The notes beneath the pieces were generated by a model. It saw nothing but the letters and a program-made list of their open reading frames with translations, searched no databases and was not told where the DNA came from. The position numbers and the translations under genes were made by a program. This document shows, piece by piece, positions 23,748-51,073 of a stretch of DNA of 64,000 nt (within the stretch, counting starts at the first letter, position 1; every line of letters starts with the position of its first letter). This DNA comes from Candidatus Saccharibacteria bacterium CPR2 (GTDB lineage Bacteria; Patescibacteriota; Saccharimonadia; Saccharimonadales; QWHN01): the NCBI GenBank assembly GCA_021404905.1, contig QWHN01000001.1:258810-322809 (forward strand), given 5' to 3'.

Positions 23748-25265
23748 ATGAAAATGCCAGCAAAAGTTAAGTCGATGTGGCGGGTTAATCTTGTCTCTAT
23801 ATCTGTTTTTATGTTGGCTGGTGTAGTTGCTGGTTTACTATTACTGCGTAGCTTTGCAGCAGGTTCGGCGGCGCTATACGTTTCTCCTTCTAGCGCTACG
23901 GTTGACGTCAATTCAAACTTTACCGTTAATGTAATGGTAAATACAAATGGTTCTTCCGTATCGGCTGTGGATGTTAAAGTAACTTATGATACTGCCAAAC
24001 TACAGCTTGTTTCCAAAGATTACTCCAGCTCTGCTTTTACAGATTATGTTTCTTCGCCAAGCACTTCTGCTGGGACAGTTCAGTTTTTGCATGCTCAGTT
24101 TAGCCCTTTAAACGGGGATTTGTTAATAGGTCGCATTACATTTAAAGCTATAGCAGGGTCAGGATCAACTTCCTTATCATTTACGGGAGACTCTGAGGCA
24201 GCGTTTGAGGGTTCATCAATTGTCGGCTCAAGAACTGGCGCAACCATTAATTTAAATACTCCAGCAAGCACTCCGCCCCCGTCATCAGGCGGCGGGTCGA
24301 CTCAGCAAACCAACAATACAGGTTCATCGTCTGGTAGCAATTCGAGTAACAGCTCGGGGTCGAGCACCACGACTAATTCAGGCTCATCGAATACAACCAC
24401 TGGTTCTGAACCAACGACTAGCGCTTCACCCGAAAATCCTGAAGGCCCGTCTATTACAAATCTGGAAACTATTGAGGTAGGGTTTAAAAAAGCGATAATA
24501 AAGTTCAATACATCAAAGCCTGCAACCGCAACTGTTGAATATGGAGAAAGCCAGGATCTTGGCAGTGTTGCCGAATCAAAAGAAGCAAAACAAGAGCATT
24601 CTGTTTCACTAACTAATTCGCTTCTAAAGCCAGGCACAACACACTACTATAAGGTGACAGTGTCAGACGCAGATGGGAATAAAGCAACCAGCGATGTTCT
24701 TAAATTTACTACTCGAGGATACTACTTAATTATTAAACTGTCTCAACCTGACGGGAAACCGCTTGCGAAGGTTCCCGTACAACTTTTTTCAGAACCAAGA
24801 GAGGGCACGACTGATGACATAGGCCAAGTTGAGTTTGATAATGTGGCGTTCGGGGAACATACAATAAAGTACAATCATAATGGCAAAGATTATGAGCAGA
24901 AACTTGAAGTTAGCGATGTTCTTTCTCTTGCTAATGTCGATGTGGCAGATGACACCGAGGTGAATCCGCAAGTTTACCAAGTGTTTGCTGTAAAATCTAC
25001 TAGTTTCTCGAGCAAGACAGGATACCTAACGACTATCGCAATTGTCTTAATAATCGGCATGATCGGCTTTGGGGTGACATTATTCATAAAAAATCGTAAG
25101 TTAAGCTTGAATACTATCAGCTCTGGGGTCGGTGAAGTATCCGTTGGCGGAGTAGGCATAAAGCCAAAAATAAATGCTCAAAAAGACTCTGGGCAGAAAC
25201 AAGAAGATGATCCCATAAAGAGGCTTCTTGAAAGCGAAGACGATAAACCAAATAAATCACTTTAG
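23748..25265 (+). CDS. cell-surface protein: signal/anchor, cohesin-like domain, S/T/G/N-rich linker, FN3-like and prealbumin-like domains, C-terminal TM anchor
   Basis: An N-terminal hydrophobic segment is followed by a ~130-aa block with the cohesin beta-sandwich pattern (…ALYVSPSSATVDVNSNFTVNVMVNTNGSSVSAVDVKVTYDTAKLQLVSK…LLIGRITFKAIAGSGSTSLSFTG). A low-complexity linker runs 24280-24420. The C-terminal TM is IAIVLIIGMIGFGVTLFI, then a charged tail. SD AAGGAA. Confidence 0.6.
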   Translation: MKMPAKVKSMWRVNLVSISVFMLAGVVAGLLLLRSFAAGSAALYVSPSSATVDVNSNFTVNVMVNTNGSSVSAVDVKVTYDTAKLQLVSKDYSSSAFTDYVSSPSTSAGTVQFLHAQFSPLNGDLLIGRITFKAIAGSGSTSLSFTGDSEAAFEGSSIVGSRTGATINLNTPASTPPPSSGGGSTQQTNNTGSSSGSNSSNSSGSSTTTNSGSSNTTTGSEPTTSASPENPEGPSITNLETIEVGFKKAIIKFNTSKPATATVEYGESQDLGSVAESKEAKQEHSVSLTNSLLKPGTTHYYKVTVSDADGNKATSDVLKFTTRGYYLIIKLSQPDGKPLAKVPVQLFSEPREGTTDDIGQVEFDNVAFGEHTIKYNHNGKDYEQKLEVSDVLSLANVDVADDTEVNPQVYQVFAVKSTSFSSKTGYLTTIAIVLIIGMIGFGVTLFIKNRKLSLNTISSGVGEVSVGGVGIKPKINAQKDSGQKQEDDPIKRLLESEDDKPNKSL

Positions 25266-31629: not shown

Positions 31630-32667
31630 ATGAGCATATTAAGTCCAGGAAATTTTTTTGCAATAGATATAGGCACTACTGCGATTCGCGTAGTTGAGCT
31701 TAGAGGTGGCGGTGGATCCAAAGCCTTGGTTCGTTATGGCAGCATTCCAGTTGATTATAAAACTGCGCAAAGTGATTCGGCCGCTGACAGAACACATCTT
31801 TTAGAAGCACTTACCAAGTTAATTAACTCGGTCGGAGTCTCCACTAGAAACGTAGTCGTTGGTGTGCCGTCTAGCAGGATGTTTGCCACGATTGTTGATA
31901 TGCCAAAACTTGATAAGCCTGAGCTGGATAAAACGATTCAATACCAGGCTGAACAATATATTCCTATGTCTCTTGACGAAGCTGAAATTGACTGGCAGGT
32001 ACTAGGCGACAGCCCTGTAGCTGGTGATAAATCGGAAGTATTGCTGGTAAGTTCTACCAAGAAATTTACTGAGAGCAGACTGGATTTGCTTGAATCGATA
32101 GGGCTAAATGTTGTAGCCCTAGAACCAGACCCGTTAGCTCTTACCAGAGCACTACTTCCTTTTGGAAGTACCGGAGCAGTTATGCTTCTTGACATTGGCA
32201 ACCAGTCTACTGATCTAATTGTGGCAATTGACACAGCACCTAGATTGATAAGATCTATCCCGACTGGTGGAGCATCTTTTGTGCGCTCTGCTATGCAAAA
32301 CTTAAATGTGGATGAGAAGCAAGCTGAACAATTTGTATTTAAATTTGGCTTGAATCAACAAAAACTGGAAGGCCAAGTTTTCAAAGCGATAGAATCTACG
32401 GTTGATGGATTGGTTGCTGAAGTACAAAAATCAGTCAAATTCTTCACTAATAGGTATAAGAATGTTGCTATAGAAAAAATCGTTGTGAGTGGCGGAGCTT
32501 CTACATTACCAGAATTTCCTTTATATATTGCAAATAAGTTGAATATGCAAGTTGAGATTGGCAATTCTTGGCAAAATGTGAGTTATCCAAGCAACCTCAA
32601 CAATGATTTACTGGCAATATCTAGCAGGTTTGGAGTAGCTGTGGGTTTGGCGGAGAGAGAACAATGA
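31630..32667 (+). CDS. pilM: type IV pilus assembly protein PilM (actin-like ATPase)
   Basis: FFAIDIGTTAIRVVEL N-terminal actin-fold phosphate-1 motif. It is followed by PilN- and PilO-like genes with 4-nt overlaps. Confidence 0.85.
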   Translation: MSILSPGNFFAIDIGTTAIRVVELRGGGGSKALVRYGSIPVDYKTAQSDSAADRTHLLEALTKLINSVGVSTRNVVVGVPSSRMFATIVDMPKLDKPELDKTIQYQAEQYIPMSLDEAEIDWQVLGDSPVAGDKSEVLLVSSTKKFTESRLDLLESIGLNVVALEPDPLALTRALLPFGSTGAVMLLDIGNQSTDLIVAIDTAPRLIRSIPTGGASFVRSAMQNLNVDEKQAEQFVFKFGLNQQKLEGQVFKAIESTVDGLVAEVQKSVKFFTNRYKNVAIEKIVVSGGASTLPEFPLYIANKLNMQVEIGNSWQNVSYPSNLNNDLLAISSRFGVAVGLAEREQ

Positions 32668-33404
32668 GCATGGTACAGCTAAATCTATTACCTCGGATAA
32701 AAAAGGAATTTATTAAAGCTCAGCGAACTAAGCGCCTATTCATAGTAGGGTCTATATTAGTATCAGGCGTATTTGTCGGGCTTGTAGTATTGCTGCTTAT
32801 GTACACAATCACTCAGCGGGTGCTTATATCAAACCTTCAGACCAGTATTGATAAAAATGTAAAGACTCTTCAGGATGAAAAAGACCTGGATAAAATCTTG
32901 ACAGTACAAAACCAATTAAATTCCTTGCCGGAGCTTTATAAGCAAAAACCGACAACTGAGAGAGTATTCAGTTTTATTAATAGACTTGTTCCCTCTGGGG
33001 TTGAACTGCATGAATTTCAGCTTAATTTCAGTGAGTCTAAAATGACAATTAAAGGTGGAGCCATTACTATAAAAAACATTAATGTCTTCACCGACACAAT
33101 CAAATACGCTAAGTACAGGCTAAAAGATGGCAGTGATGATAATAAGAGCGAGAATGAATTACCGGCAGCGTTTTCTAACTTAGTATCAAACATAACCGCA
33201 AATGATAGATCTAACAGCGCATCAGAATCAGATGAAGGAGCCTCGTTTGAACTAACATTGAATTACGACGTGGCACTTTTTGATATTAACAAGCCAAATC
33301 TTGAATTGCTTATACCAGCCATAGAGAGCACAACTTCAGCTACTGAAAGACCAGGCGGAGTATTTAACGATCAGTTTGTACCCGAAGAAGGAGAAAGTCA
33401 ATGA
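32664..33404 (+). CDS. pilN: PilN-like pilus assembly protein
   Basis: Short cytoplasmic N-terminus, single TM (LFIVGSILVSGVFVGLVVLLLMY) and periplasmic coiled-coil. Translationally coupled to pilM. Confidence 0.7.
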   Translation: MSMVQLNLLPRIKKEFIKAQRTKRLFIVGSILVSGVFVGLVVLLLMYTITQRVLISNLQTSIDKNVKTLQDEKDLDKILTVQNQLNSLPELYKQKPTTERVFSFINRLVPSGVELHEFQLNFSESKMTIKGGAITIKNINVFTDTIKYAKYRLKDGSDDNKSENELPAAFSNLVSNITANDRSNSASESDEGASFELTLNYDVALFDINKPNLELLIPAIESTTSATERPGGVFNDQFVPEEGESQ

Positions 33405-34036
33405 AAGATAAAGGCACGGTAATAGTTGGGAAAAAGGCTTTAATCAAAAAAGCAGGAAGCCAGGTATTCATTGCTGTGGTAATAGGATCTATCGTTGTTT
33501 CTTTCTCAGTGATATTTATTAAGTTTCTGTGGGGGATAAAAGTTCATAATGATCATGTTTGGGCAGAAAAAAATACCGCGAAAATTGCGCTTGAGAATAA
33601 TGTTAAAAATCTGGATGAATTAAAAAGAAGTTATCTGCTGCTTGATAATAATGAAAGCGTAAATGCCCGCACAATTTTGGATGCTTTGCCCAGTAAATAT
33701 GACTATCCTGCATTAGCCACCAGTGTTGAAAACTTGGTTACAAAAGGATCTTCACCCGTAGTATTAACTGGTTTTACTGGGACGGATCAACAATTAGAGG
33801 CGCAACAAAAATCTTCTAACCCTCAACCAGTAGAAGTTCCGTTTACGGTTACCGTCAAAGGTTCTTATGATAACATCAAGGGATTTATTGAAAGATTACA
33901 GAAATCTATCAGGCCAATGAAAGTTGCGAATTTGTCACTCTCGGGCAATAACGCGGATATGGAAGCTACAATTGATGTAGTTACTTACTATCAGCCGGCG
34001 CAAGACTTAACAATTGAGACAAGGACAGTAGAATGA
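33401..34036 (+). CDS. pilO: PilO-like pilus assembly protein
   Basis: Single TM (VFIAVVIGSIVVSFSVIFI) plus periplasmic domain. The position in the pilMNO array supports the call. Confidence 0.6.
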   Translation: MKDKGTVIVGKKALIKKAGSQVFIAVVIGSIVVSFSVIFIKFLWGIKVHNDHVWAEKNTAKIALENNVKNLDELKRSYLLLDNNESVNARTILDALPSKYDYPALATSVENLVTKGSSPVVLTGFTGTDQQLEAQQKSSNPQPVEVPFTVTVKGSYDNIKGFIERLQKSIRPMKVANLSLSGNNADMEATIDVVTYYQPAQDLTIETRTVE

Positions 34037-34317
34037 AACAAAGTGATGTAGCATTATTAATAATTGTTATAGCAATAAGCTTGGCTGCTTCGTACTTAAT
34101 AGGAGGCAAAGTTATAAATAAACCAGAGAATCGCCAGACTCAAGTAGAAGTGGTAAGAGAGTATTCAACCTCTTTTCCAAGCCCTAATGAAGACCCTTTA
34201 AGCGAATCAGCAGATATTATCTATAATAGGATTTTTACAAAAGACGCCGTAAATCCAACCGAAACCATACAAATTGGCCCTGGACAAAACACAGATCCCT
34301 TTACGAATACCGAGTAA
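34033..34317 (+). CDS. small membrane protein of the pilus operon (unknown)
   Basis: 94 aa with one TM (ALLIIVIAISLAASYLIGG), coupled to the pilO stop. No family recognised. Confidence 0.35.
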   Translation: MKQSDVALLIIVIAISLAASYLIGGKVINKPENRQTQVEVVREYSTSFPSPNEDPLSESADIIYNRIFTKDAVNPTETIQIGPGQNTDPFTNTE

Positions 34318-34331
34318 CGAGGGTCTAGACC

Positions 34332-36116
34332 TTGAGTGTCTTAGTTAGCGAAAATCAAAATCAAGTTGAGAAGCTGTTAGTTGACGATGGTCTTATTTCA
34401 AATGTAGATCTGAAAAAATACCGCGATGAAGCCGCAAAAAAGAAACAGCCTTTGATGGCTTATCTTTTAGAAAATAAAGTTATTAATGATGAACAACTTA
34501 CCAAAGCAATTGCTAAAGTAGCAAAGATTCCTTATGTGAATCTTTCTCAAACTATCGTAAAAGCCGATATACTAAAGCTTCTTCCTAAAGAACATGCTGA
34601 GCGTTTTTTGGCTGTTCCTCTTGGGGAAATGGATGATCGGCTTGTGGTCGCAATGCTGGATGCCGACAATGTTCAGGCAGTAGACTTTCTGTCGAGTAAA
34701 ATTGGCCGCCCACTTAAAGTCTATATGGCTTCGGAACAAGGCATAAAACATGTTATTAGCCAGTATAAAGCAGATTTGGCTGAGGTAACGGCATTTGAAG
34801 AGGAGCAATCCAGGCAGGAAATAGAGGAATCCAAGGGTTCTAAAAAACCTGAAGCAGATATCAATTCTATAGTTGCTGATTCCCCAGTAAGCAAAGCGCT
34901 GAGCACCATACTTGAATATGCCGTAACGTCCAGAGCATCAGATATTCACATCGAACCTCTTGAGAATGAAGTTAAAATTCGCTGTCGAATAGATGGAGTC
35001 CTGCGAGAAATTATGAGACTGCCAAAATCAGTTGAGCCGGCACTCGTTTCGCGTATTAAAATTCTTGCCAGACTAAAGATTGACGAACACAGGAAGCCCC
35101 AGGATGGTGAGTTTGTCATTAAGGCTGCCGGACGTGAAGTTGATTTAAGAATAGCTATATCTCCCGTAGTTTGGGGCGAGCAAGTTGTAATTAGAATTTT
35201 GGATAAATCTGGGATGAGTCTTAAACTTGAAGATTTGGGTTACGCAGGGAGAGCCCTAAGATTAATAAGAGAAGGGCTGGCCAAACCAAATGGAATGATT
35301 CTAACCAGTGGCCCAACCGGATCTGGCAAATCAACTTCACTATATTCACTGATTCAGGAAATAGCAACTGATGAAATTAATATTGTTACTTTAGAAGACC
35401 CAGTTGAATATAAAATGCCAGGAGTTAATCAAATCCAGGTAAATGCAGATGTGGGTTTAACTTTCGCGTCGGGGTTACGTTCTATTTTGCGCCAAGATCC
35501 AGATGTAGTAATGGTAGGTGAAATGCGAGATCACGAAACTGCCAGGCTTGGCGTCCAAGCTGCGCTTACCGGCCATCTTGTATTTTCGACATTGCATACA
35601 AATTCTGCTGCTGGAGTATTACCCAGATTGCTCGACATGGAAATTGAACCGTTTTTAATTGCATCCACAGTCAACACCGTCATTGGCCAAAGACTAGTGC
35701 GAAGAATTTCAGAAAACAAAGAGCCTTATGAAACTGATGAAGTAACTACTAAAACTATTATCGATACAGTCGGACATCTGCTGCCCAAGAACAAAGAAGA
35801 AGCCGAAAAAGTTAGTAAAGAACTGGGTTATGAAAACTTGCCGTTGACGGGCCAAAAAGCTTATACTTTGTACAAGGGTGTAAGCGACAGCCAGGCACCT
35901 GGTGGTTATAAAGGGCGCATTGGCGTGTATGAAGTGTTTGATGTAAATGAGGAAATGGAAAAATTAATCCTCAAGAGGTCAACAAGCACCGAAATACAAA
36001 ACTTGGCGCAAAAGCAAGGTATGATATCAATGCGCGAAGACGGATATTTAAAAGCACTTAGCGGGTTGACTACTCTCGATGAAGTAAATAGAGTAGCGGC
36101 ACCGGATAGTGCGTAA
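34332..36116 (+). CDS. pilB: type IV pilus assembly ATPase PilB (GspE family)
   Basis: N-terminal GSPII_E_N domain, Walker A (GPTGSGKSTSLYSL), Asp/His boxes and a zinc-binding-like region. TTG start with SD GAGGG 8 nt upstream. Confidence 0.9.
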   Translation: MSVLVSENQNQVEKLLVDDGLISNVDLKKYRDEAAKKKQPLMAYLLENKVINDEQLTKAIAKVAKIPYVNLSQTIVKADILKLLPKEHAERFLAVPLGEMDDRLVVAMLDADNVQAVDFLSSKIGRPLKVYMASEQGIKHVISQYKADLAEVTAFEEEQSRQEIEESKGSKKPEADINSIVADSPVSKALSTILEYAVTSRASDIHIEPLENEVKIRCRIDGVLREIMRLPKSVEPALVSRIKILARLKIDEHRKPQDGEFVIKAAGREVDLRIAISPVVWGEQVVIRILDKSGMSLKLEDLGYAGRALRLIREGLAKPNGMILTSGPTGSGKSTSLYSLIQEIATDEINIVTLEDPVEYKMPGVNQIQVNADVGLTFASGLRSILRQDPDVVMVGEMRDHETARLGVQAALTGHLVFSTLHTNSAAGVLPRLLDMEIEPFLIASTVNTVIGQRLVRRISENKEPYETDEVTTKTIIDTVGHLLPKNKEEAEKVSKELGYENLPLTGQKAYTLYKGVSDSQAPGGYKGRIGVYEVFDVNEEMEKLILKRSTSTEIQNLAQKQGMISMREDGYLKALSGLTTLDEVNRVAAPDSA

Positions 36117-36129
36117 AAAGGGTGGGAAA

Positions 36130-37197
36130 ATGGCAACACAATTAAGAATAGAGTTACTGCTAGAAGAAGTTATTAAAAAGGATGCTTCGGATTTGCATCT
36201 TCAAGTTGCACTTCCTCCTATGATCCGAATTGATGGAGCTTTGTCTCCCATACCGAACACTGAAGTTTTAGACGAAGAAGCCGTTGAGGCACTGGTATTT
36301 TCAATACTTGATGAGGACCAAAAGCAGATTTTACTAAAAGATAAAGAATTTGATTTTTCTTTCGCGTTTGGGGATCTTGGTCGTTTTCGCGTCAATGCTT
36401 TTCATGAAAGAGGGAATCTGGCGGCAGCACTTCGCTTAATTCCAAATAAAATTAGAACCGTTGAGGAACTTGGTCTTCCCAAAATCGTAAATTCATTCGC
36501 TGAATATCCAAGGGGGCTTGTGTTAGTAACCGGCCCGACAGGTTCAGGCAAGTCTACAACTTTGGCAGCTTTAATAGACAGGGTGAATAATGACCGTCCG
36601 GCTCATATTATTACTATTGAGGACCCAATAGAGTATACCCACAAGTCCAAAAAAGGTGTCATAGTCCAACGCGAACTCCACTACGACACTTACTCGTTTT
36701 CTGCAGCTCTGCGTTCCAGTTTGCGTCAGGATCCAGATGTAGTTTTAATAGGTGAAATGCGCGATTTGGAGACTATAGCGGCGGCTATAACAATTGCAGA
36801 AACAGGTCACTTAGTTTTCGCTACGCTTCACACTAACTCGGCAGCCCAATCAATAGATCGCATGATTGATGTATTTCCGCCACACCAACAGCCGCAAATT
36901 CGAGCTCAGCTTGGCAATATGCTTATGGCAATAGCTTCTCAAAGACTAATTCCGGCAATAGGAGGAGGTAGGGTTGCTGCTGCGGAAATTTTAGTGGCTA
37001 CCCCAGCGGTCCGCAATATTATTCGTGAAGGAAAATCTCATCAACTGGATGCAGTTATACAAACTGGGGCAGAACATGGCATGCAGTCCATGGATAAAAC
37101 TTTAGTTCAGCTTATTCACAATGGCACGATAACTTATGACGAAGCCCGCAATTACGCCGTAGATCTTGAAGAGCTTGATAGGTTAATGAGAGGCTAA
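36130..37197 (+). CDS. pilT: twitching-motility retraction ATPase PilT
   Basis: MATQLRIELLLEEVIKKDASDLHL…, Walker A GPTGSGKSTTLAAL, and AIRNIIREGK. SD AAGGGTGGG. Confidence 0.9.
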   Translation: MATQLRIELLLEEVIKKDASDLHLQVALPPMIRIDGALSPIPNTEVLDEEAVEALVFSILDEDQKQILLKDKEFDFSFAFGDLGRFRVNAFHERGNLAAALRLIPNKIRTVEELGLPKIVNSFAEYPRGLVLVTGPTGSGKSTTLAALIDRVNNDRPAHIITIEDPIEYTHKSKKGVIVQRELHYDTYSFSAALRSSLRQDPDVVLIGEMRDLETIAAAITIAETGHLVFATLHTNSAAQSIDRMIDVFPPHQQPQIRAQLGNMLMAIASQRLIPAIGGGRVAAAEILVATPAVRNIIREGKSHQLDAVIQTGAEHGMQSMDKTLVQLIHNGTITYDEARNYAVDLEELDRLMRG

Positions 37198-47707: not shown

Positions 47708-48748
47708 ATGTCTAATAGACAGAGACATAATGTGATAAAAAAAATTAAAAGCCAATTTAATGTAAACAAGGTAGCACTTGTACTAACAATTGTTTCATTT
47801 GGTGCCATCGGATATGTTCTACTTCGAGGTTCATTAGCAGCTGATTCTATAGTTGATGTACAGGCAGAAAATATGACTGCTACTGGAGGTGCAAGTACTG
47901 GGAGTGATACGAATGCATCAAGTGGGCAATACTTTAAGTTTGGTAGCGCCAGTGGCAGTTTAGAGCCGATTCTACCCAATTTTACAGGAACGTGTCCTAC
48001 CATAAAGTCTGGTCAGGTTAGTTTTCCTTCTGATAGTAATCGTGTTGTCCATTTTCGGATGGACAGTAATGCAAGCACCAAAGGTCCTCTTATATTTCTC
48101 TGGCATGGCCAACAAACAGCCGACACTACTGATTCAGAAGCTAATTCCATTGGTAATAATTTACTAGGAAGTACTACAGTTACAAATTTAGTTAATGCTG
48201 GCGCGGTATTAGCAATAATGAAAATGCATACTGCTAGCACTTGGGATAATGCTAGTAGTTGGAGTACATCAAATCGTGACTTAAATTTAGTAGATGCTGT
48301 AACTGCTTGCGCAAACAACCAAGGACACATTGATAGTAAAAGAATACACTCCATAGGTATGAGTTGGGGTGGTTACCAAACCTCTCATTTGGCATTTCTA
48401 AGAGCAAACTATATAGCAAGTGCGGTAGTAATGTCGGGTGGTTTTACTGGAAGTCCTCCTTCAAGTGCCATTCAGCGACCAGAAAATAAGTTTGCAACAA
48501 TTACTACATTAGGTTCTACTTCTGCGGGTGAGCTACAGGTTGTTGTATCACCATTACAAGGGTATCGCGATTATGCAAAATCTGCCGGACATTTCGTAGT
48601 ACATTGTCAACACAGTGGAGGGCACATACCTATTTCTGGTGGTGGTCCGATGCATCAAAGATTTTTCCAAGATCATTATTATGGAGTTCCCAAAGCATAT
48701 ACGACACTTCCTGTACCTCCATTCTTAAGTTCCTGTTCAATTTATTAA
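47708..48748 (+). CDS. secreted alpha/beta-hydrolase (esterase/depolymerase-like)
   Basis: Signal-anchor (VALVLTIVSFGAIGYVLL), an N-terminal beta-rich segment, and a GxSxG nucleophile elbow (GMSWGG) with downstream His. Confidence 0.55.
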   Translation: MSNRQRHNVIKKIKSQFNVNKVALVLTIVSFGAIGYVLLRGSLAADSIVDVQAENMTATGGASTGSDTNASSGQYFKFGSASGSLEPILPNFTGTCPTIKSGQVSFPSDSNRVVHFRMDSNASTKGPLIFLWHGQQTADTTDSEANSIGNNLLGSTTVTNLVNAGAVLAIMKMHTASTWDNASSWSTSNRDLNLVDAVTACANNQGHIDSKRIHSIGMSWGGYQTSHLAFLRANYIASAVVMSGGFTGSPPSSAIQRPENKFATITTLGSTSAGELQVVVSPLQGYRDYAKSAGHFVVHCQHSGGHIPISGGGPMHQRFFQDHYYGVPKAYTTLPVPPFLSSCSIY

Positions 48749-48775: not shown

Positions 48776-51073
48776 ATGAATATCCAAAAATTATCAACAA
48801 AAAACTTAGTTCGATTGCTTTGGGTAATATTTGTCTTGGCTTTGTTTGCTACTGCATTTGTATTTCAGAACAGGCTTGATGTAAACGCCGCATGTGCTGG
48901 TTCTAACTATGGCAGTGGTACAACGCAAATAAATGTTAGCGGAAGTGGTACGCATAGGGTTTGGGCAAGAGTTATGCCATCAACATCTACCGGCAATTCG
49001 TTCTTTATGCAAATAGATAGCGGTACGTGTATTGAAGTTGGTACGAACAATTCGGTAACTGCTAACCAATGGACTTGGATAGATTATAAAAATAGTAATG
49101 AATCCACCAAAAACGATGTTAGTTTAAGCACTGGTAATCATACACTCAGTATTTATGGCAAAACAGCAAATCTAAAAATTGATAGGATAATAATGACAAG
49201 TAGCACATCTTGTGTTCCGACAGATAAAGGTGATAATTGTGTATCCGTGACTCCTCCACCTGTTAGCGGAGATTCAAGTGAAGTTTGTGGAACCTGGGTG
49301 ATCCAACAAGTTTCAAGTGTATCAGAGTTAAATAGTCTAGAGTCTAAGATTAAAGACGCATTAGATTTGCCGGGAGTTGTTGGTTTCTCTGTTAGGTTTC
49401 CTTGGAACGCAGCTGATATATCCGGTTCTGCTACTACTCATCCTCTACTTGATAAGGCAAAACAAATTGCCGATAGCAAAGGGAAAGCCCTTTCAATTCG
49501 TTTTATGGCAGGCCGCCACGTGCCGACAAGAGTATTTGATGCCGGGGCTAAATACTATCTCTTTAATAATCAAAAAGTTGGTATACCCTGGGATTCAAGC
49601 GACCCTAATATATACCGCAAAAATCAGATCTGGTTAGACGAATTCGACAAATATACAGCCAAACTTGTTAACTGGTCTAAACAAAATAATGTCAAGCTTA
49701 TTCATCTTTCATGGTGGGCCCAAGATTGGGCGGAATTAAATCATGGCAAGGAGGTCCGCGCTTTGCCTGGGTATTCAAAAAGCAACTGGCTTTCAGGCCA
49801 CAAAGAAATAATTGATATTGGTGCAAAGTATGCAAACGATGCTTCTAGTGGCGTAATTATGGAATTGCCGATGTCTGGTTATGGTCCTGTTGCCACGGAC
49901 ATGTCACCTGCTTTAGCGGATCATATTGTATCTAAGGTTGGTCAAAATACCGACAAATTTTTCATCCAGGCCAATGGTTGGAGCAACTCTCAGGAATGGG
50001 GAGCACCGGATACTACAACTGAAGCGTCATTTGATCAAATTTGGGCTAAGCCTGTAAAACGGGGCTTGCAGGCGATCCAACCAGATGGGTATGATTGGAC
50101 AGCAGCCTATGCGCGCCTCGGTGACCCATCAAAATTACCAACGCAGTCTAGTAAAGATTCAGTAAACGCGACTTATGCTGAAGTTTATCTACCAAGCTTT
50201 TGGCAAATACCAGGCCCTATGGGGAATAACACCCAAGTTAAAATAGACCAATTAAAATCTGAAATCGCAAAGTTTGGGCAAAAATGTCCAACCGGACAAC
50301 CGCCACAAGACACTACACCCCCAAACATTTCGCTTTCAGCCAATCCCACTACTGTGACTGTTGGTAGCAACGTCTCGCTAAACGCTACGGCGTCAGATAA
50401 CATAGGTGTGACTAACGTTGAATTTTATGATGAAAGCACGTTGATTGGCAGCGACTCTTCATCTCCATATACGCTTACCTGGAATACTACAGGCGCGTCA
50501 ACCGGAGCCCATAGTATGACCGCTAAAGCGTTTGATATGGCCGGAAACACAAAAACCAGCACGGCGGTGTTCGTAACCGTACAAAACTCTACGCCTTCGG
50601 ACACAACGGCTCCGAGCGTAGCACTTACTAGTCCTTCTGCCGGCGCGACTGTTTACACCGGCAGCGCTCAGACGCTAACGGCAACCGCTTCGGATAATAC
50701 AGGTGTAACCAAAGTTGAGTTCTATAGAGCAGGACAATATCTACTCGGTACGGCTACCAGAAGCTCGGGTACGGCGCAGAACGGTACCTGGACAGCCAGT
50801 TGGTCACCAACTACCGCGGGCTCAGCGCCATTGACAGCCAAAGCCTACGATGCGGCCGGTAATGTTACCGATTCATCTATTGTTACTGTTACTATATCTG
50901 ATCAACCCCCACTAGTTCCTGCAGATTTGAATAATGACGGTAAAGTAGATATCTTTGATCTTTCAATACTGCTATCTAAATGGAATACGAGCGACCAAAC
51001 CGCGGATATTAACAATGACGACAAGGTTGACGTGTTTGATCTTTCCATCATGCTGTCGAGCTGGTCTTCGTAA
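48776..51073 (+). CDS. secreted multidomain protein: CBM-like beta-sandwich + TIM-barrel-like (putative glycoside hydrolase) region + two Ig-like repeats + C-terminal dockerin
   Basis: Signal peptide present. Two ~95-aa tandem Ig-like repeats (…ASDNIGVTNVEFYDES… / …ASDNTGVTKVEFYRAG…). The C-terminal pair of Ca-binding dockerin segments reads DLNNDGKVDIFDLSILLSKW and DINNDDKVDVFDLSIMLSSW. Confidence 0.6.
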   Translation: MNIQKLSTKNLVRLLWVIFVLALFATAFVFQNRLDVNAACAGSNYGSGTTQINVSGSGTHRVWARVMPSTSTGNSFFMQIDSGTCIEVGTNNSVTANQWTWIDYKNSNESTKNDVSLSTGNHTLSIYGKTANLKIDRIIMTSSTSCVPTDKGDNCVSVTPPPVSGDSSEVCGTWVIQQVSSVSELNSLESKIKDALDLPGVVGFSVRFPWNAADISGSATTHPLLDKAKQIADSKGKALSIRFMAGRHVPTRVFDAGAKYYLFNNQKVGIPWDSSDPNIYRKNQIWLDEFDKYTAKLVNWSKQNNVKLIHLSWWAQDWAELNHGKEVRALPGYSKSNWLSGHKEIIDIGAKYANDASSGVIMELPMSGYGPVATDMSPALADHIVSKVGQNTDKFFIQANGWSNSQEWGAPDTTTEASFDQIWAKPVKRGLQAIQPDGYDWTAAYARLGDPSKLPTQSSKDSVNATYAEVYLPSFWQIPGPMGNNTQVKIDQLKSEIAKFGQKCPTGQPPQDTTPPNISLSANPTTVTVGSNVSLNATASDNIGVTNVEFYDESTLIGSDSSSPYTLTWNTTGASTGAHSMTAKAFDMAGNTKTSTAVFVTVQNSTPSDTTAPSVALTSPSAGATVYTGSAQTLTATASDNTGVTKVEFYRAGQYLLGTATRSSGTAQNGTWTASWSPTTAGSAPLTAKAYDAAGNVTDSSIVTVTISDQPPLVPADLNNDGKVDIFDLSILLSKWNTSDQTADINNDDKVDVFDLSIMLSSWSS

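Follow-up and report, generated by a model that had tools for sequence, protein, structure and literature searches.

In the genome of Candidatus Saccharibacteria bacterium CPR2 a protein is encoded whose N-terminal module was confirmed as a genuine cohesin. It probably acts as a cell-surface "anchoring scaffoldin" with a single cohesin that captures secreted dockerin proteins, and the likeliest client encoded in the window (the whole stretch of DNA that was analysed, 64 kb in length) is the product of the gene at 48776-51073, hereafter the 48776 protein. A first-pass annotation made from the DNA letters alone had assumed a CPR-type genome, in agreement with the source organism, and had postulated that the two proteins form a matched pair. 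The idea of such a pair gains support from gene order in other Saccharibacteria, in which homologues of the cohesin and dockerin genes lie side by side, overlap or are fused.

Gene, domain architecture and identity of the cohesin module

The open reading frame lies exactly where the first-pass annotation had placed it, and all three peptide blocks quoted there are present in the translation (Table 1). Translation more likely starts at the ATG at position 23754, giving 503 residues, than at the first codon of the 505-residue form, because the spacing of an AAGGA motif fits this codon. The 503-residue form is recorded at NCBI as MCE7936458.1 (labelled "hypothetical protein DYH10_01530") and was found identically on at least 24 metagenome contigs; no exact record was found for the 505-residue product.

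Table 1. Positions in the window of the cohesin gene, its encoded domains and the candidate partner genes
Feature	Position	Strand	Basis
Cohesin-protein gene, whole	23748..25265	+	ORF, 505 aa; 503 aa if start is ATG 23754
Signal peptide or signal anchor (aa 1-37)	23748..23858	+	Hydropathy scan
Cohesin module, type-I-like (aa 35-175)	23850..24272	+	Pfam, PDB profile, AF2, Foldseek
S/T/G/N/P linker, low-complexity (aa 176-235)	24273..24452	+	Composition
FN3-like beta-sandwich (aa 236-322)	24453..24713	+	Sub-threshold Pfam matches
Transthyretin / CarboxypepD_reg / MG4-like beta-sandwich (aa 323-400)	24714..24947	+	Pfam
C-terminal TM helix (aa 427-447, LTTIAIVLIIGMIGFGVTLFI)	25026..25088	+	Hydropathy maximum 2.62; then KNRK
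Putative cytoplasmic tail, ~58 aa, K/D/E-rich	25089..25262	+	Sequence; topology from positive-inside rule
Secreted alpha/beta-hydrolase (PHA/PHB-depolymerase-like esterase) adjoining dockerin gene	47708..48748	+	NCBIfam matches below cut-off
Candidate partner, 765-aa secreted dockerin protein	48776..51073	+	ORF, Pfam
Dockerin module (aa 714-765)	50915..51070	+	Pfam Dockerin_1 (PF00404) 26.3 bits, GA 22.9

From the N- to the C-terminus the protein is composed of a signal peptide, the cohesin, a linker rich in Ser, Thr, Gly and Asn, an FN3-like domain, a transthyretin-like domain, a TM helix and a cytoplasmic tail. The signal region shows a K/R-rich n-region and a hydrophobic core (aa 13-33) followed by S-F-A|A, a putative signal peptidase I site at which cleavage would be expected from the A-x-A-like motif. 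Among the 60 residues of the linker are 20 S, 11 T, 9 G, 7 P and 7 N, and it is predicted to be disordered, with pLDDT values below 50 in an AF2 model of a cohesin-dockerin chimera. The FN3-like domain reaches 28.1 bits with Pfam Pur_ac_phosph_N, which is below the gathering cut-off (GA) of 30, and DUF7800 is likewise below cut-off; the region of the homologue P0005 that aligns to this domain passes Pur_ac_phosph_N. The transthyretin-like domain passes MG4 (28.4 bits, GA 24.7), and its matches to CarboxypepD_reg and SpaA are below cut-off in the cohesin protein and in its orthologues alike. Both domains had been overlooked when the cohesin was described as being tethered by a linker and a C-terminal TM helix; the linker and the helix, with the positive-inside KNRK behind it, stand as described, and the two beta-sandwiches have to be placed in between.

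The cohesin is overlooked if the protein is scanned as a whole. Full-length scans with Pfam (at E<=1) and NCBIfam returned no cohesin match, whereas the isolated module matches Pfam PF00963 (Cohesin) with 35.9 bits (E 1e-8; gathering cut-off 24.1), so that the Pfam check suggested in the first-pass annotation succeeds for the module and fails for the full-length protein. We infer that the miss is caused by the low-complexity linker; it fits the label under which the protein is recorded at NCBI. In the orthologues P0002, P0003 and P0004 the same region passes the Cohesin GA, the orthologue scores amounting to 25.4, 32.4, 27.9, 33.9 and 29.4 bits, and Pfam Cohesin is matched by 26 of 29 family members. 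In a phmmer search of the PDB with the single sequence, cohesins came out on top, yet merely with E-values of 0.2-0.3. With a profile of the 29 family members cohesins constitute the top ~22 sequence matches in the PDB, the best of them with an E-value of 4.3e-8 over profile positions 6-141.

The AF2 model of the module (pLDDT 93.6, pTM 0.87) is all-beta, and DSSP assigned no helix throughout its 141 residues. In a Foldseek search of the PDB the 50 top matches were cohesins without exception (E down to 1.5e-9). The best were type I cohesins, which superimpose over the full module with TM-scores of 0.78-0.79 and an rmsd of 2.4-2.8 A, and the closest folds include type I cohesins that were solved in complex with a dockerin (6kgf, 2vn5, 2vn6). 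By AF2 and Foldseek the module shows the fold that characterises cohesins, i.e., a nine-stranded flattened beta-sandwich of jelly-roll topology that superimposes on solved cohesins. TM-scores normalised by target length are 0.7-0.78 for type I and ~0.5 for type II/III cohesins, the latter targets being longer. With ~140 residues and devoid of the alpha-helix or beta-flap insertions of types II and III, the modelled module would be type I-like by size and shape, as had been proposed from the sequence.

Alternatively, the protein might be a generic structural surface or S-layer-like protein of the Ig/FN3 type with a superficial likeness to cohesins, a reading that could draw on the full-length Pfam scan without a cohesin match and on the remaining ectodomain, which is made up of generic beta-sandwich domains. 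This reading was rejected and is scarcely credible, since the isolated module exceeds the curated Pfam Cohesin cut-off, the top 50 structural matches of the model are exclusively cohesins at a TM-score of 0.78 across the full module, and the profile search against the PDB is cohesin-specific. A generic Ig/FN3 fold lacking a Cohesin hit had been named in the first-pass annotation as the outcome that would speak against its proposal, and what was found instead is a cohesin by sequence and by predicted fold.

The candidate dockerin partner and linked loci in other Saccharibacteria

As counterpart of the cohesin a dockerin-bearing secreted enzyme 25 kb downstream had been put forward. The dockerin proved to be canonical, with two repeats; the distance is 23.5 kb, and the genes are not co-transcribed in CPR2; and for the enzyme no support was found, as no catalytic domain (GH, CE, PL) was recognisable in the 48776 protein by Pfam, NCBIfam, PDB phmmer or a PDB profile. 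The protein comprises a signal peptide, a GH115_C-like CBM-type module (aa 38-158), a 350-residue core (aa 162-510), two Big_7 Ig domains and the dockerin. For the core, to which the metagenome scan yielded a single relative, no fold was matched in Pfam, NCBIfam, PDB phmmer or a two-sequence PDB profile, and the term "hydrolase" is therefore unproven for this protein. Dockerins are recognised by two repeats of ~22 residues, each with a loop of the form D-x-[ND]-x-D-G-x-x-[DN]-x-x-D and a helix. The 48776 protein carries two nearly identical repeats of a Ca-loop and a helix, DLNNDGKVDIFDLSILLSKW and DINNDDKVDVFDLSIMLSSW, with the loops at aa 718 and aa 745 and the helices predicted at residues 210-218 and 237-245 of the chimera (pLDDT 91-96). 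Exactly one cohesin and one dockerin motif are present in the 64 kb of the window, a count that refers to part of a genome measuring 390 kb or more, so that further dockerins or cohesins may exist.

A word-indexed search for homologues, for which the N-terminal 172 residues served as query, returned no relatives, an exhaustive search yielded 2135 cluster representatives, and the related loci were retrieved with a seven-sequence alignment. Among the genomes sampled the family is centred on Saccharibacteria, and all members that carry a source name are labelled "hypothetical protein". About 106 of 155 relatives share the layout of signal peptide, cohesin and TM helix, with the helix in the same place. 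Another 19 relatives combine one or more cohesins with a C-terminal dockerin and lack the TM helix, and these look like adaptors. Relatives with several cohesins occur outside the window, P0007 having nine. The mixture of TM anchors and cohesin-dockerin adaptors is as expected of a working cohesin-dockerin system.

At six of nine independent loci (L005, L006, L007, L008, L010 and L014) a dockerin ORF abuts the cohesin gene or is fused to it, and across the 260 kb examined seven of the eight two-loop dockerin ORFs adjoin a cohesin. The cohesin proteins of L006 and L008 have the same full architecture as the window protein; at both loci the downstream dockerin gene overlaps the cohesin-anchor gene and encodes a protein homologous at both ends to the 48776 protein (E 4e-33 and 2e-44 for the two ends at L008). 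Moreover, at L008 the homologues of the cohesin anchor, the dockerin protein and the esterase form one contiguous cluster, in which the cohesin-dockerin pair is followed directly by the esterase homologue (52% identical), and the esterase gene of the window probably belongs to the same ancestral cluster as the dockerin gene. The nearest relative of the window cohesin and that of the window dockerin are members of one linked pair, at L005. With both modules present in the window and a functional tie suggested by the linkage and by the L008 synteny, the two proteins would represent a non-cellulosomal cohesin-dockerin pair.

It has to be considered whether the cohesin does bind dockerins while its real client or clients are encoded outside the window and the 48776 protein docks elsewhere or nowhere. 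This is conceivable, as the 64 kb were examined out of a contig that is at least 389.7 kb long and the two genes are not adjacent in CPR2. Also, the L005 cohesin is flanked by two different dockerin proteins, by which it appears normal in this family that one cohesin serves several clients. The dockerin class differs between orthologous pairs as well: the partners of the L006 and L008 anchors show VN[AF]LDF...Y and the window dockerin VDIFDLSILL..W, which implies that the specificity diverged and is not simply transferable. A mirror-tree test for co-divergence of cohesins and dockerins did not reach significance (r 0.38, p 0.085). However, the window holds a single cohesin and a single dockerin, the 48776 protein is homologous to the dockerin proteins whose genes overlap the cohesin-anchor gene at L006 and L008, and the linked L005 pair is nearest to both window modules, which makes a client encoded elsewhere unlikely.

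The cohesin fold might also serve as an adhesin or ligand binder independent of dockerins, e.g., for a glycan or protein of the host cell, and it would then co-occur with dockerins simply because both act at the surface. A dockerin partner has reportedly not been demonstrated for many of the cohesin-like modules outside cellulosomes, and L009 and L013 carry cohesin genes in tandem without a dockerin in the neighbourhood. Furthermore, AF2 showed no confident docking in a single-chain cohesin-dockerin chimera: both modules were modelled confidently, and the pTM of 0.56, judged together with pLDDT rather than from coordinates or PAE, is about the value expected when the relative placement of two modules is not confident. 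Nevertheless, adjacency, overlap or fusion at six of the nine loci would be difficult to account for if no direct functional link existed, architectures that unite cohesin and dockerin exist within the same family, and the fold is nearest to type I cohesins that bind dockerins in the solved complexes. A dockerin-independent adhesin is therefore regarded as improbable.

Proposed surface display and comparison with known systems

CPR bacteria, Saccharibacteria among them, live as attached partners of host bacteria, and how host-directed proteins are arranged on their cell surface is, to our knowledge, little understood. As an anchoring scaffoldin the cohesin protein would leave the cell by Sec export, its signal peptide probably being cleaved, and the C-terminal helix would hold it in the cytoplasmic membrane with the short tail inside. 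The transthyretin-like and FN3-like domains together with the 60-residue Ser/Thr-rich linker would form a stalk that keeps the cohesin off the cell. We infer a physical interaction in which the cohesin grips the calcium-dependent C-terminal dockerin of secreted proteins, resulting in their retention on the cell surface, with the 765-residue 48776 protein as likeliest client from the window. Given the near identity of the two repeats in its dockerin, two alternative binding orientations would be open to this protein. Presumably, host- or polymer-directed proteins are presented in this way at the surface of the epibiont.

The anchoring scaffoldins of Firmicutes, such as SdbA, OlpB, OlpA and OlpC of C. 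thermocellum and ScaE of R. flavefaciens, likewise expose a cohesin on the surface for dockerin-tagged secreted proteins and keep it at a distance by means of a long linker rich in Ser, Thr and Pro, and the modelled window cohesin superimposes on the cohesins of OlpA/OlpC (3ul4, 4dh2) and ScaE (2zf9). In contrast to these scaffoldins, which are attached by SLH repeats or a sortase LPXTG motif, the window protein ends in a TM helix and a cytoplasmic tail, and Pfam gave no SLH match; it has a single cohesin, no match to a CBM including CBM3, and a stalk with FN3-like and transthyretin-like domains. The host is a reduced-genome epibiont and not a cellulolytic organism, and the client shows no recognisable GH domain of a cellulase or of any other kind, unlike cellulosomal clients. 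None of the hallmarks of a cellulosome was found in the window, i.e., a primary scaffoldin with tandem cohesins and CBM3, dockerins on glycoside hydrolases or other CAZymes, and SLH or LPXTG attachment.

By sequence profile as well as by structure the closest matches are the mesophilic clostridial type I cohesins CohA2 of C. acetobutylicum CipA (6kg8/6kge/6kgf) and Coh1 of C. cellulolyticum CipC (1g1k/2vn5/2vn6), with profile E-values of 4e-8 to 1e-7, a TM-score of 0.78 and an rmsd of 2.4-2.8 A. They share with the window module the length of ~140 residues, the all-beta fold and the lack of type II/III insertions, and the two symmetric repeats of the window dockerin resemble the C. cellulolyticum dockerin with its dual binding mode. 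The identity is merely 14-21%, and the clostridial modules stand in a tandem array on a secreted primary scaffoldin, whereas the window module is single and sits on a membrane-anchored protein.

The first-pass annotation had regarded cohesin-dockerin scaffolding as characteristic of cellulosomal Firmicutes. It is not confined there: such modules are known outside cellulosomes from numerous phyla (Peer et al., 2009, cited in PMC10066038), by which their finding in a CPR bacterium is less exotic than had been implied. The window protein is an unannotated addition to this known kind, with which it shares that the organism has no cellulosome and that the modules presumably tether or assemble non-cellulolytic proteins. 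The cohesin of Archaeoglobus fulgidus (2xdh) is matched with a TM-score of 0.75 and those of toxins and glycosidases of Clostridium perfringens (2jh2, 2ozn, 2w1n, 2vo8) with 0.65-0.70. While the C. perfringens cohesins are attached to the enzymes themselves, the window cohesin is located on a dedicated TM-anchored display protein with conserved linkage to dockerins.

That the protein had stayed without annotation is due to the domain going undetected when Pfam is run on the whole protein. This points to a systematic annotation gap, and Ser/Thr-rich surface proteins with embedded cohesins need domain-wise scanning. In the literature searched no description of a saccharibacterial cohesin was found. 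Membrane-anchored single-cohesin proteins, whose genes show linkage to those of dockerins in a number of Saccharibacteria, constitute a candidate partner class for the dockerin proteins of these organisms, and they raise the directly testable hypothesis that secreted proteins are tethered via cohesin and dockerin at the epibiont surface. As a more far-reaching and tentative idea, which we consider possible and rather doubtful, the TM-anchored cohesins might be the missing receptor of saccharibacterial dockerin proteins and form with the adaptors and with dockerin-tagged cell-wall-active enzymes a minimal membrane-anchored complex for host attachment or feeding. If so, this complex would be functionally distinct from cellulosomes. 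The enzymes meant are deacetylases and glycosylhydrolase-like proteins; L010 carries a polysaccharide deacetylase and L005 an F510_1955-like glycosylhydrolase or BNR propeller.

In the cultivated Saccharibacterium Southlakia epibionticum the dockerin-domain envelope protein SEML1_0315 was found to be essential by Tn-seq; no cohesin partner is named for it in that study, and the supplementary tables contain no cohesin-type structural match for the terms used (Wang et al., 2023, PMC10633639). By its description SEML1_0315 has in common with the 48776 protein that it is an envelope protein of Saccharibacteria in which a dockerin is combined with Ig-like domains. The gene of an alpha/beta-hydrolase adjoins SEML1_0315, just as the esterase gene adjoins the dockerin gene of the window.

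Identity and architecture of the cohesin protein

The first-pass annotation had described the product of the window ORF 23748-25265 as a surface-displayed cohesin tethered by a linker and a C-terminal transmembrane (TM) helix, and both the placement of the ORF and the quoted peptide blocks were recovered in translation. The full-length protein gave no Cohesin match in Pfam even at E≤1, the only match being MG4 (aa 325-363), whereas the isolated module scored 35.9 bits (E 1e-8) at a Pfam Cohesin (PF00963) cut-off of 24.1 bits; the composition of the Ser/Thr-rich linker may account for the whole-protein miss. Among the full-length homologues, P0002 (54% identity, 100% coverage), P0003 and P0004 exceed the PF00963 gathering cut-off in the region corresponding to the module, and Pfam detects a Cohesin match in 26 of the 29 aligned family members. 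As a side observation, the discrepancy between whole-protein and isolated-module searches points to systematic under-annotation of cohesins in Ser/Thr-rich surface proteins.

A profile built from the same 29 sequences was compared with all PDB sequences and its top approximately 22 matches were cohesins, covering profile positions 6-141 of 142, with C. acetobutylicum CohA2 as best match (6kg8, 4.3e-8) and the C. cellulolyticum CipC cohesin among the best (2vn5, 5.5e-8; 1g1k, 1.1e-7). The AlphaFold2 model of the module, built on this alignment, is all-beta with a mean pLDDT of 93.6 and a pTM of 0.87. In a Foldseek search of the PDB, all of the best 50 matches were cohesins, the list being headed by type I modules (6kgf/6kge, 1g1k, 2vn6; TM 0.78-0.79, rmsd 2.4-2.8 Å), while the larger type II/III cohesins reached a TM of only about 0.5, normalised by target length. 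The model also resembles the non-cellulosomal A. fulgidus cohesin 2xdh (TM 0.75). The alternative, a generic Ig/FN3 sandwich with no Cohesin match, is therefore at odds with the Pfam score and with the profile and Foldseek matches, and the protein is almost certainly membrane-anchored with a genuine type-I-like cohesin.

The earlier picture of surface display holds but had left out two stalk domains, FN3-like and transthyretin-like, between linker and TM helix; for the former, the aligned region of homologue P0005 passes the Pur_ac_phosph_N cut-off. The C-terminal tail of ~58 residues would be cytoplasmic according to the positive-inside rule.

Features of the cohesin and dockerin proteins, their surroundings and related loci
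Feature	Locus	Coordinates	Strand	Basis or remark
Cohesin protein	window	23748-25265	+	505 aa; translation
Signal peptide or signal anchor	window	aa 13-33		hydropathy; K/R residues before, S-F-A/A after
Cohesin	window	aa 35-175 (23850-24272)	+	Pfam PF00963, PDB profile, AlphaFold2, Foldseek
Linker	window	60 residues between cohesin and FN3-like domain		20 S, 11 T, 9 G, 7 P, 7 N; predicted disordered
FN3-like domain	window	aa 236-322		Pur_ac_phosph_N 28.1 bits, slightly below GA 30
Transthyretin/CarboxypepD_reg/MG4-like domain	window	aa 323-400		Pfam
Second hydrophobic segment, C-terminal TM helix	window	aa 427-447		hydropathy; followed by KNRK
Type IV pilus cluster	window	31630-37197		PilM, PilO-like, PilB/T2SSE ATPase and neighbours
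Secreted PHA/PHB-depolymerase-like alpha/beta-hydrolase (esterase) gene	window	47708-48748		immediately upstream of dockerin gene
Dockerin protein	window	48776-51073	+	765 aa; Dockerin_1 26.3 bits, cut-off 22.9
GH115_C-like, CBM-type module	window	aa 38-158		19.6 bits
350-aa core	window	aa 162-510 (49259-50305)		
Stand-alone relative of core	L011	79-1029		316 aa, 58% identical
Esterase homologue	L008	13355-14113		52% identical
Polysaccharide deacetylase with CBM_4_9	L010	8259-9878		94 bits; cohesin-linked dockerin protein
BNR/Sortilin propeller protein and FN3 protein	L005	4826-9873		cohesin-linked dockerin proteins
ORF stretch 'ESYWHQ'	L005	4826-7348		by eye reminiscent of lytic transglycosylases
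Three small cohesin genes in tandem and CBM60 ORF	L013	8001-10192		
Giant ORF, then dockerin ORF, then two cohesin genes	L014	1-8771		giant ORF >4697 aa

The dockerin protein and linkage in related loci

The candidate partner carries a signal peptide, two Big_7 Ig domains (Pfam) and, at its C-terminus, two repeats, DLNNDGKVDIFDLSILLSKW and DINNDDKVDVFDLSIMLSSW, each with a canonical Ca-loop and a helix. It contains the sole dockerin of the 64-kb window in a six-frame scan, and the cohesin protein is the sole cohesin found there by hmmsearch with the family profile. Its GH115_C-like module scores higher in L006 and L008 (22.6-25.5 bits), two related loci whose homologues do not contain the 350-aa core. 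For this core, no match was found in Pfam, NCBIfam or the PDB, even with a two-sequence profile, so that the former label 'secreted enzyme' is unproven for this protein. The sole detected relative of the core lies on a soil-metagenome contig with 68% G+C, compared with 40% for the window, which suggests horizontal transfer of the domain, with a high-G+C organism as donor.

The strongest new evidence for a cohesin-dockerin pairing is comparative linkage. The cohesin gene is immediately adjoined or overlapped by a dockerin ORF in L005, L006, L008, L010 and L014, and both modules are found within one ORF in L007, i.e., in 6 of 9 independent cohesin loci. The linked dockerins pass the Pfam cut-off in all of these loci except L014, where the dockerin was identified by motif only. 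In the 260 kb examined, seven of eight two-loop dockerin ORFs adjoin a cohesin, the window's being the only separated one; its gene lies downstream, as had been noted, at a distance of 23.5 kb rather than 25 kb. The cohesin proteins of L006 and L008 (529 aa) have the full architecture of the window protein, that of L008 aligning over aa 37-391 (E 2e-38), and the dockerin proteins encoded by the overlapping downstream genes share homology with both terminal parts of the window's dockerin protein (aa 1-161, E 4e-33; aa 512-763, E 2e-44). The esterase homologue directly follows the pair in L008, where cohesin anchor, dockerin protein and esterase therefore form one cluster; in the window, esterase and dockerin genes are still adjacent. 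Furthermore, homologues of the genes flanking the window dockerin locus are found just upstream of the fusion in L007.

Cohesin-linked dockerin proteins of other Saccharibacteria do carry catalytic or binding modules (L010, L005); the L005 propeller resembles an F510_1955-family glycosylhydrolase (75.9 bits, below cut-off).

Putative pairing and specificity

A single-chain chimera of window segments only, with cohesin, its native linker and dockerin, was modelled with AlphaFold2 on an alignment backed by 11 natural cohesin-to-dockerin substrings of verified register. Both modules were predicted with confidence, the cohesin at a pLDDT of about 95 and the dockerin, which forms two helices, at 91-96; the linker came out disordered. 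The pTM, from which alone the relative placement was judged, was 0.56; by our own estimate, confident placement of the 141-residue cohesin alone would give ~0.55 and a rigid complex ~0.70. For six linked pairs, a mirror-tree analysis found a correlation of r 0.38 (exact permutation p 0.085), which is not significant and confounded by phylogeny. The L005 pair is the nearest neighbour of the window for both cohesin (49%) and dockerin (60%), and this and the mirror-tree result are consistent with pairing.

Two classes of dockerin helices were distinguished, V[DN]IFDLSILL..W and VN[AF]LDF[SL]L....Y. The window and L005 belong to the former (V/I-D-I-F-D-L-S-I-L-L), while L006, L007 and L008 belong to the latter (VN[AF]LDF...Y), which argues that specificities have diverged. 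This implies a putative specificity switch within the family, as the second class would be the partner of the architecture-orthologous anchors of L006 and L008, and the first that of the window's anchor. Taken as a whole, the cohesin protein probably functions with dockerin-bearing secreted proteins, and the protein encoded at 48776 is favoured, with less assurance, as its client.

Family, known systems and gene context

When 1.84 billion cluster representatives were searched exhaustively by HMMER for relatives of the module, 2135 proteins passed a threshold of E≤1e-3, and 246 one of E≤1e-10. Among the best 155 relatives, about 106 show the layout signal peptide, cohesin(s) and C-terminal TM helix, and 19 contain at least one cohesin and a C-terminal two-repeat dockerin without TM helix and look adaptor-like, with P0034 and P0094 as minimal signal peptide-cohesin-dockerin proteins of about 220 aa. 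Some relatives look scaffoldin-like, such as P0007 (2276 aa) with nine cohesin modules and C-terminal dockerin repeats. All six confirmed matches in GTDB species-representative genomes belong to Candidatus Saccharibacteria or Saccharimonadales MAGs. L013, a 60% G+C contig encoding citrate synthase, aldehyde dehydrogenase and succinyl-CoA ligase, also carries cohesin relatives; the family is therefore not strictly confined to Saccharibacteria and extends beyond CPR-type genomes. Every family member whose source name could be retrieved is named 'hypothetical protein'.

The cohesin protein would work like an anchoring scaffoldin. Cellulosomes are defined by tandem cohesins with CBM3, dockerin-borne cellulases and SLH or sortase anchoring, and as none of these features was found here, a role as cellulosome component was rejected. 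Non-cellulosomal cohesin and dockerin modules are described from all three domains of life (Peer et al., 2009, as cited in PMC10066038), so that the kind of system is already known; the protein is added to it as a new member that had not been annotated before. A literature search on cohesin and Saccharibacteria found no work on a saccharibacterial cohesin. In Southlakia epibionticum, the dockerin-domain envelope protein SEML1_0315 is essential, with host-glycan targeting speculated, and is adjoined by the alpha/beta hydrolase SEML1_0314 (Wang et al., 2023, PMC10633639), a hydrolase-beside-dockerin arrangement that resembles the window by gene order. The word 'cohesin' is absent from the text and supplementary tables searched of that study, and no cohesin-type structural match was found in these tables under the terms tried. 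With the window protein, the dockerin proteins of Saccharibacteria gain a specific candidate receptor, a hypothesis that is directly testable.

The 505-aa form is deposited at NCBI as MCE7936458.1, 'hypothetical protein DYH10_01530 [Candidatus Saccharibacteria bacterium CPR2]', on a 389,717-bp contig. An AAGGA Shine-Dalgarno-like element touches the first ATG (23748) and lies 6 nt ahead of the second (23754); the latter is probably the true start, as the gene is called in its 503-aa form in metagenomes. Its position among housekeeping genes (FtsK-HTH-S6-SSB-S18-EF-P-[cohesin]-TlyA/FtsJ-Ham1-YchF) is conserved, both in the window's own population and in L012, the locus of the 54% orthologue. 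Downstream of the cohesin gene, at a distance of 6 kb, is the type IV pilus cluster, assigned from the Pfam annotation precomputed for the identical contig L001.
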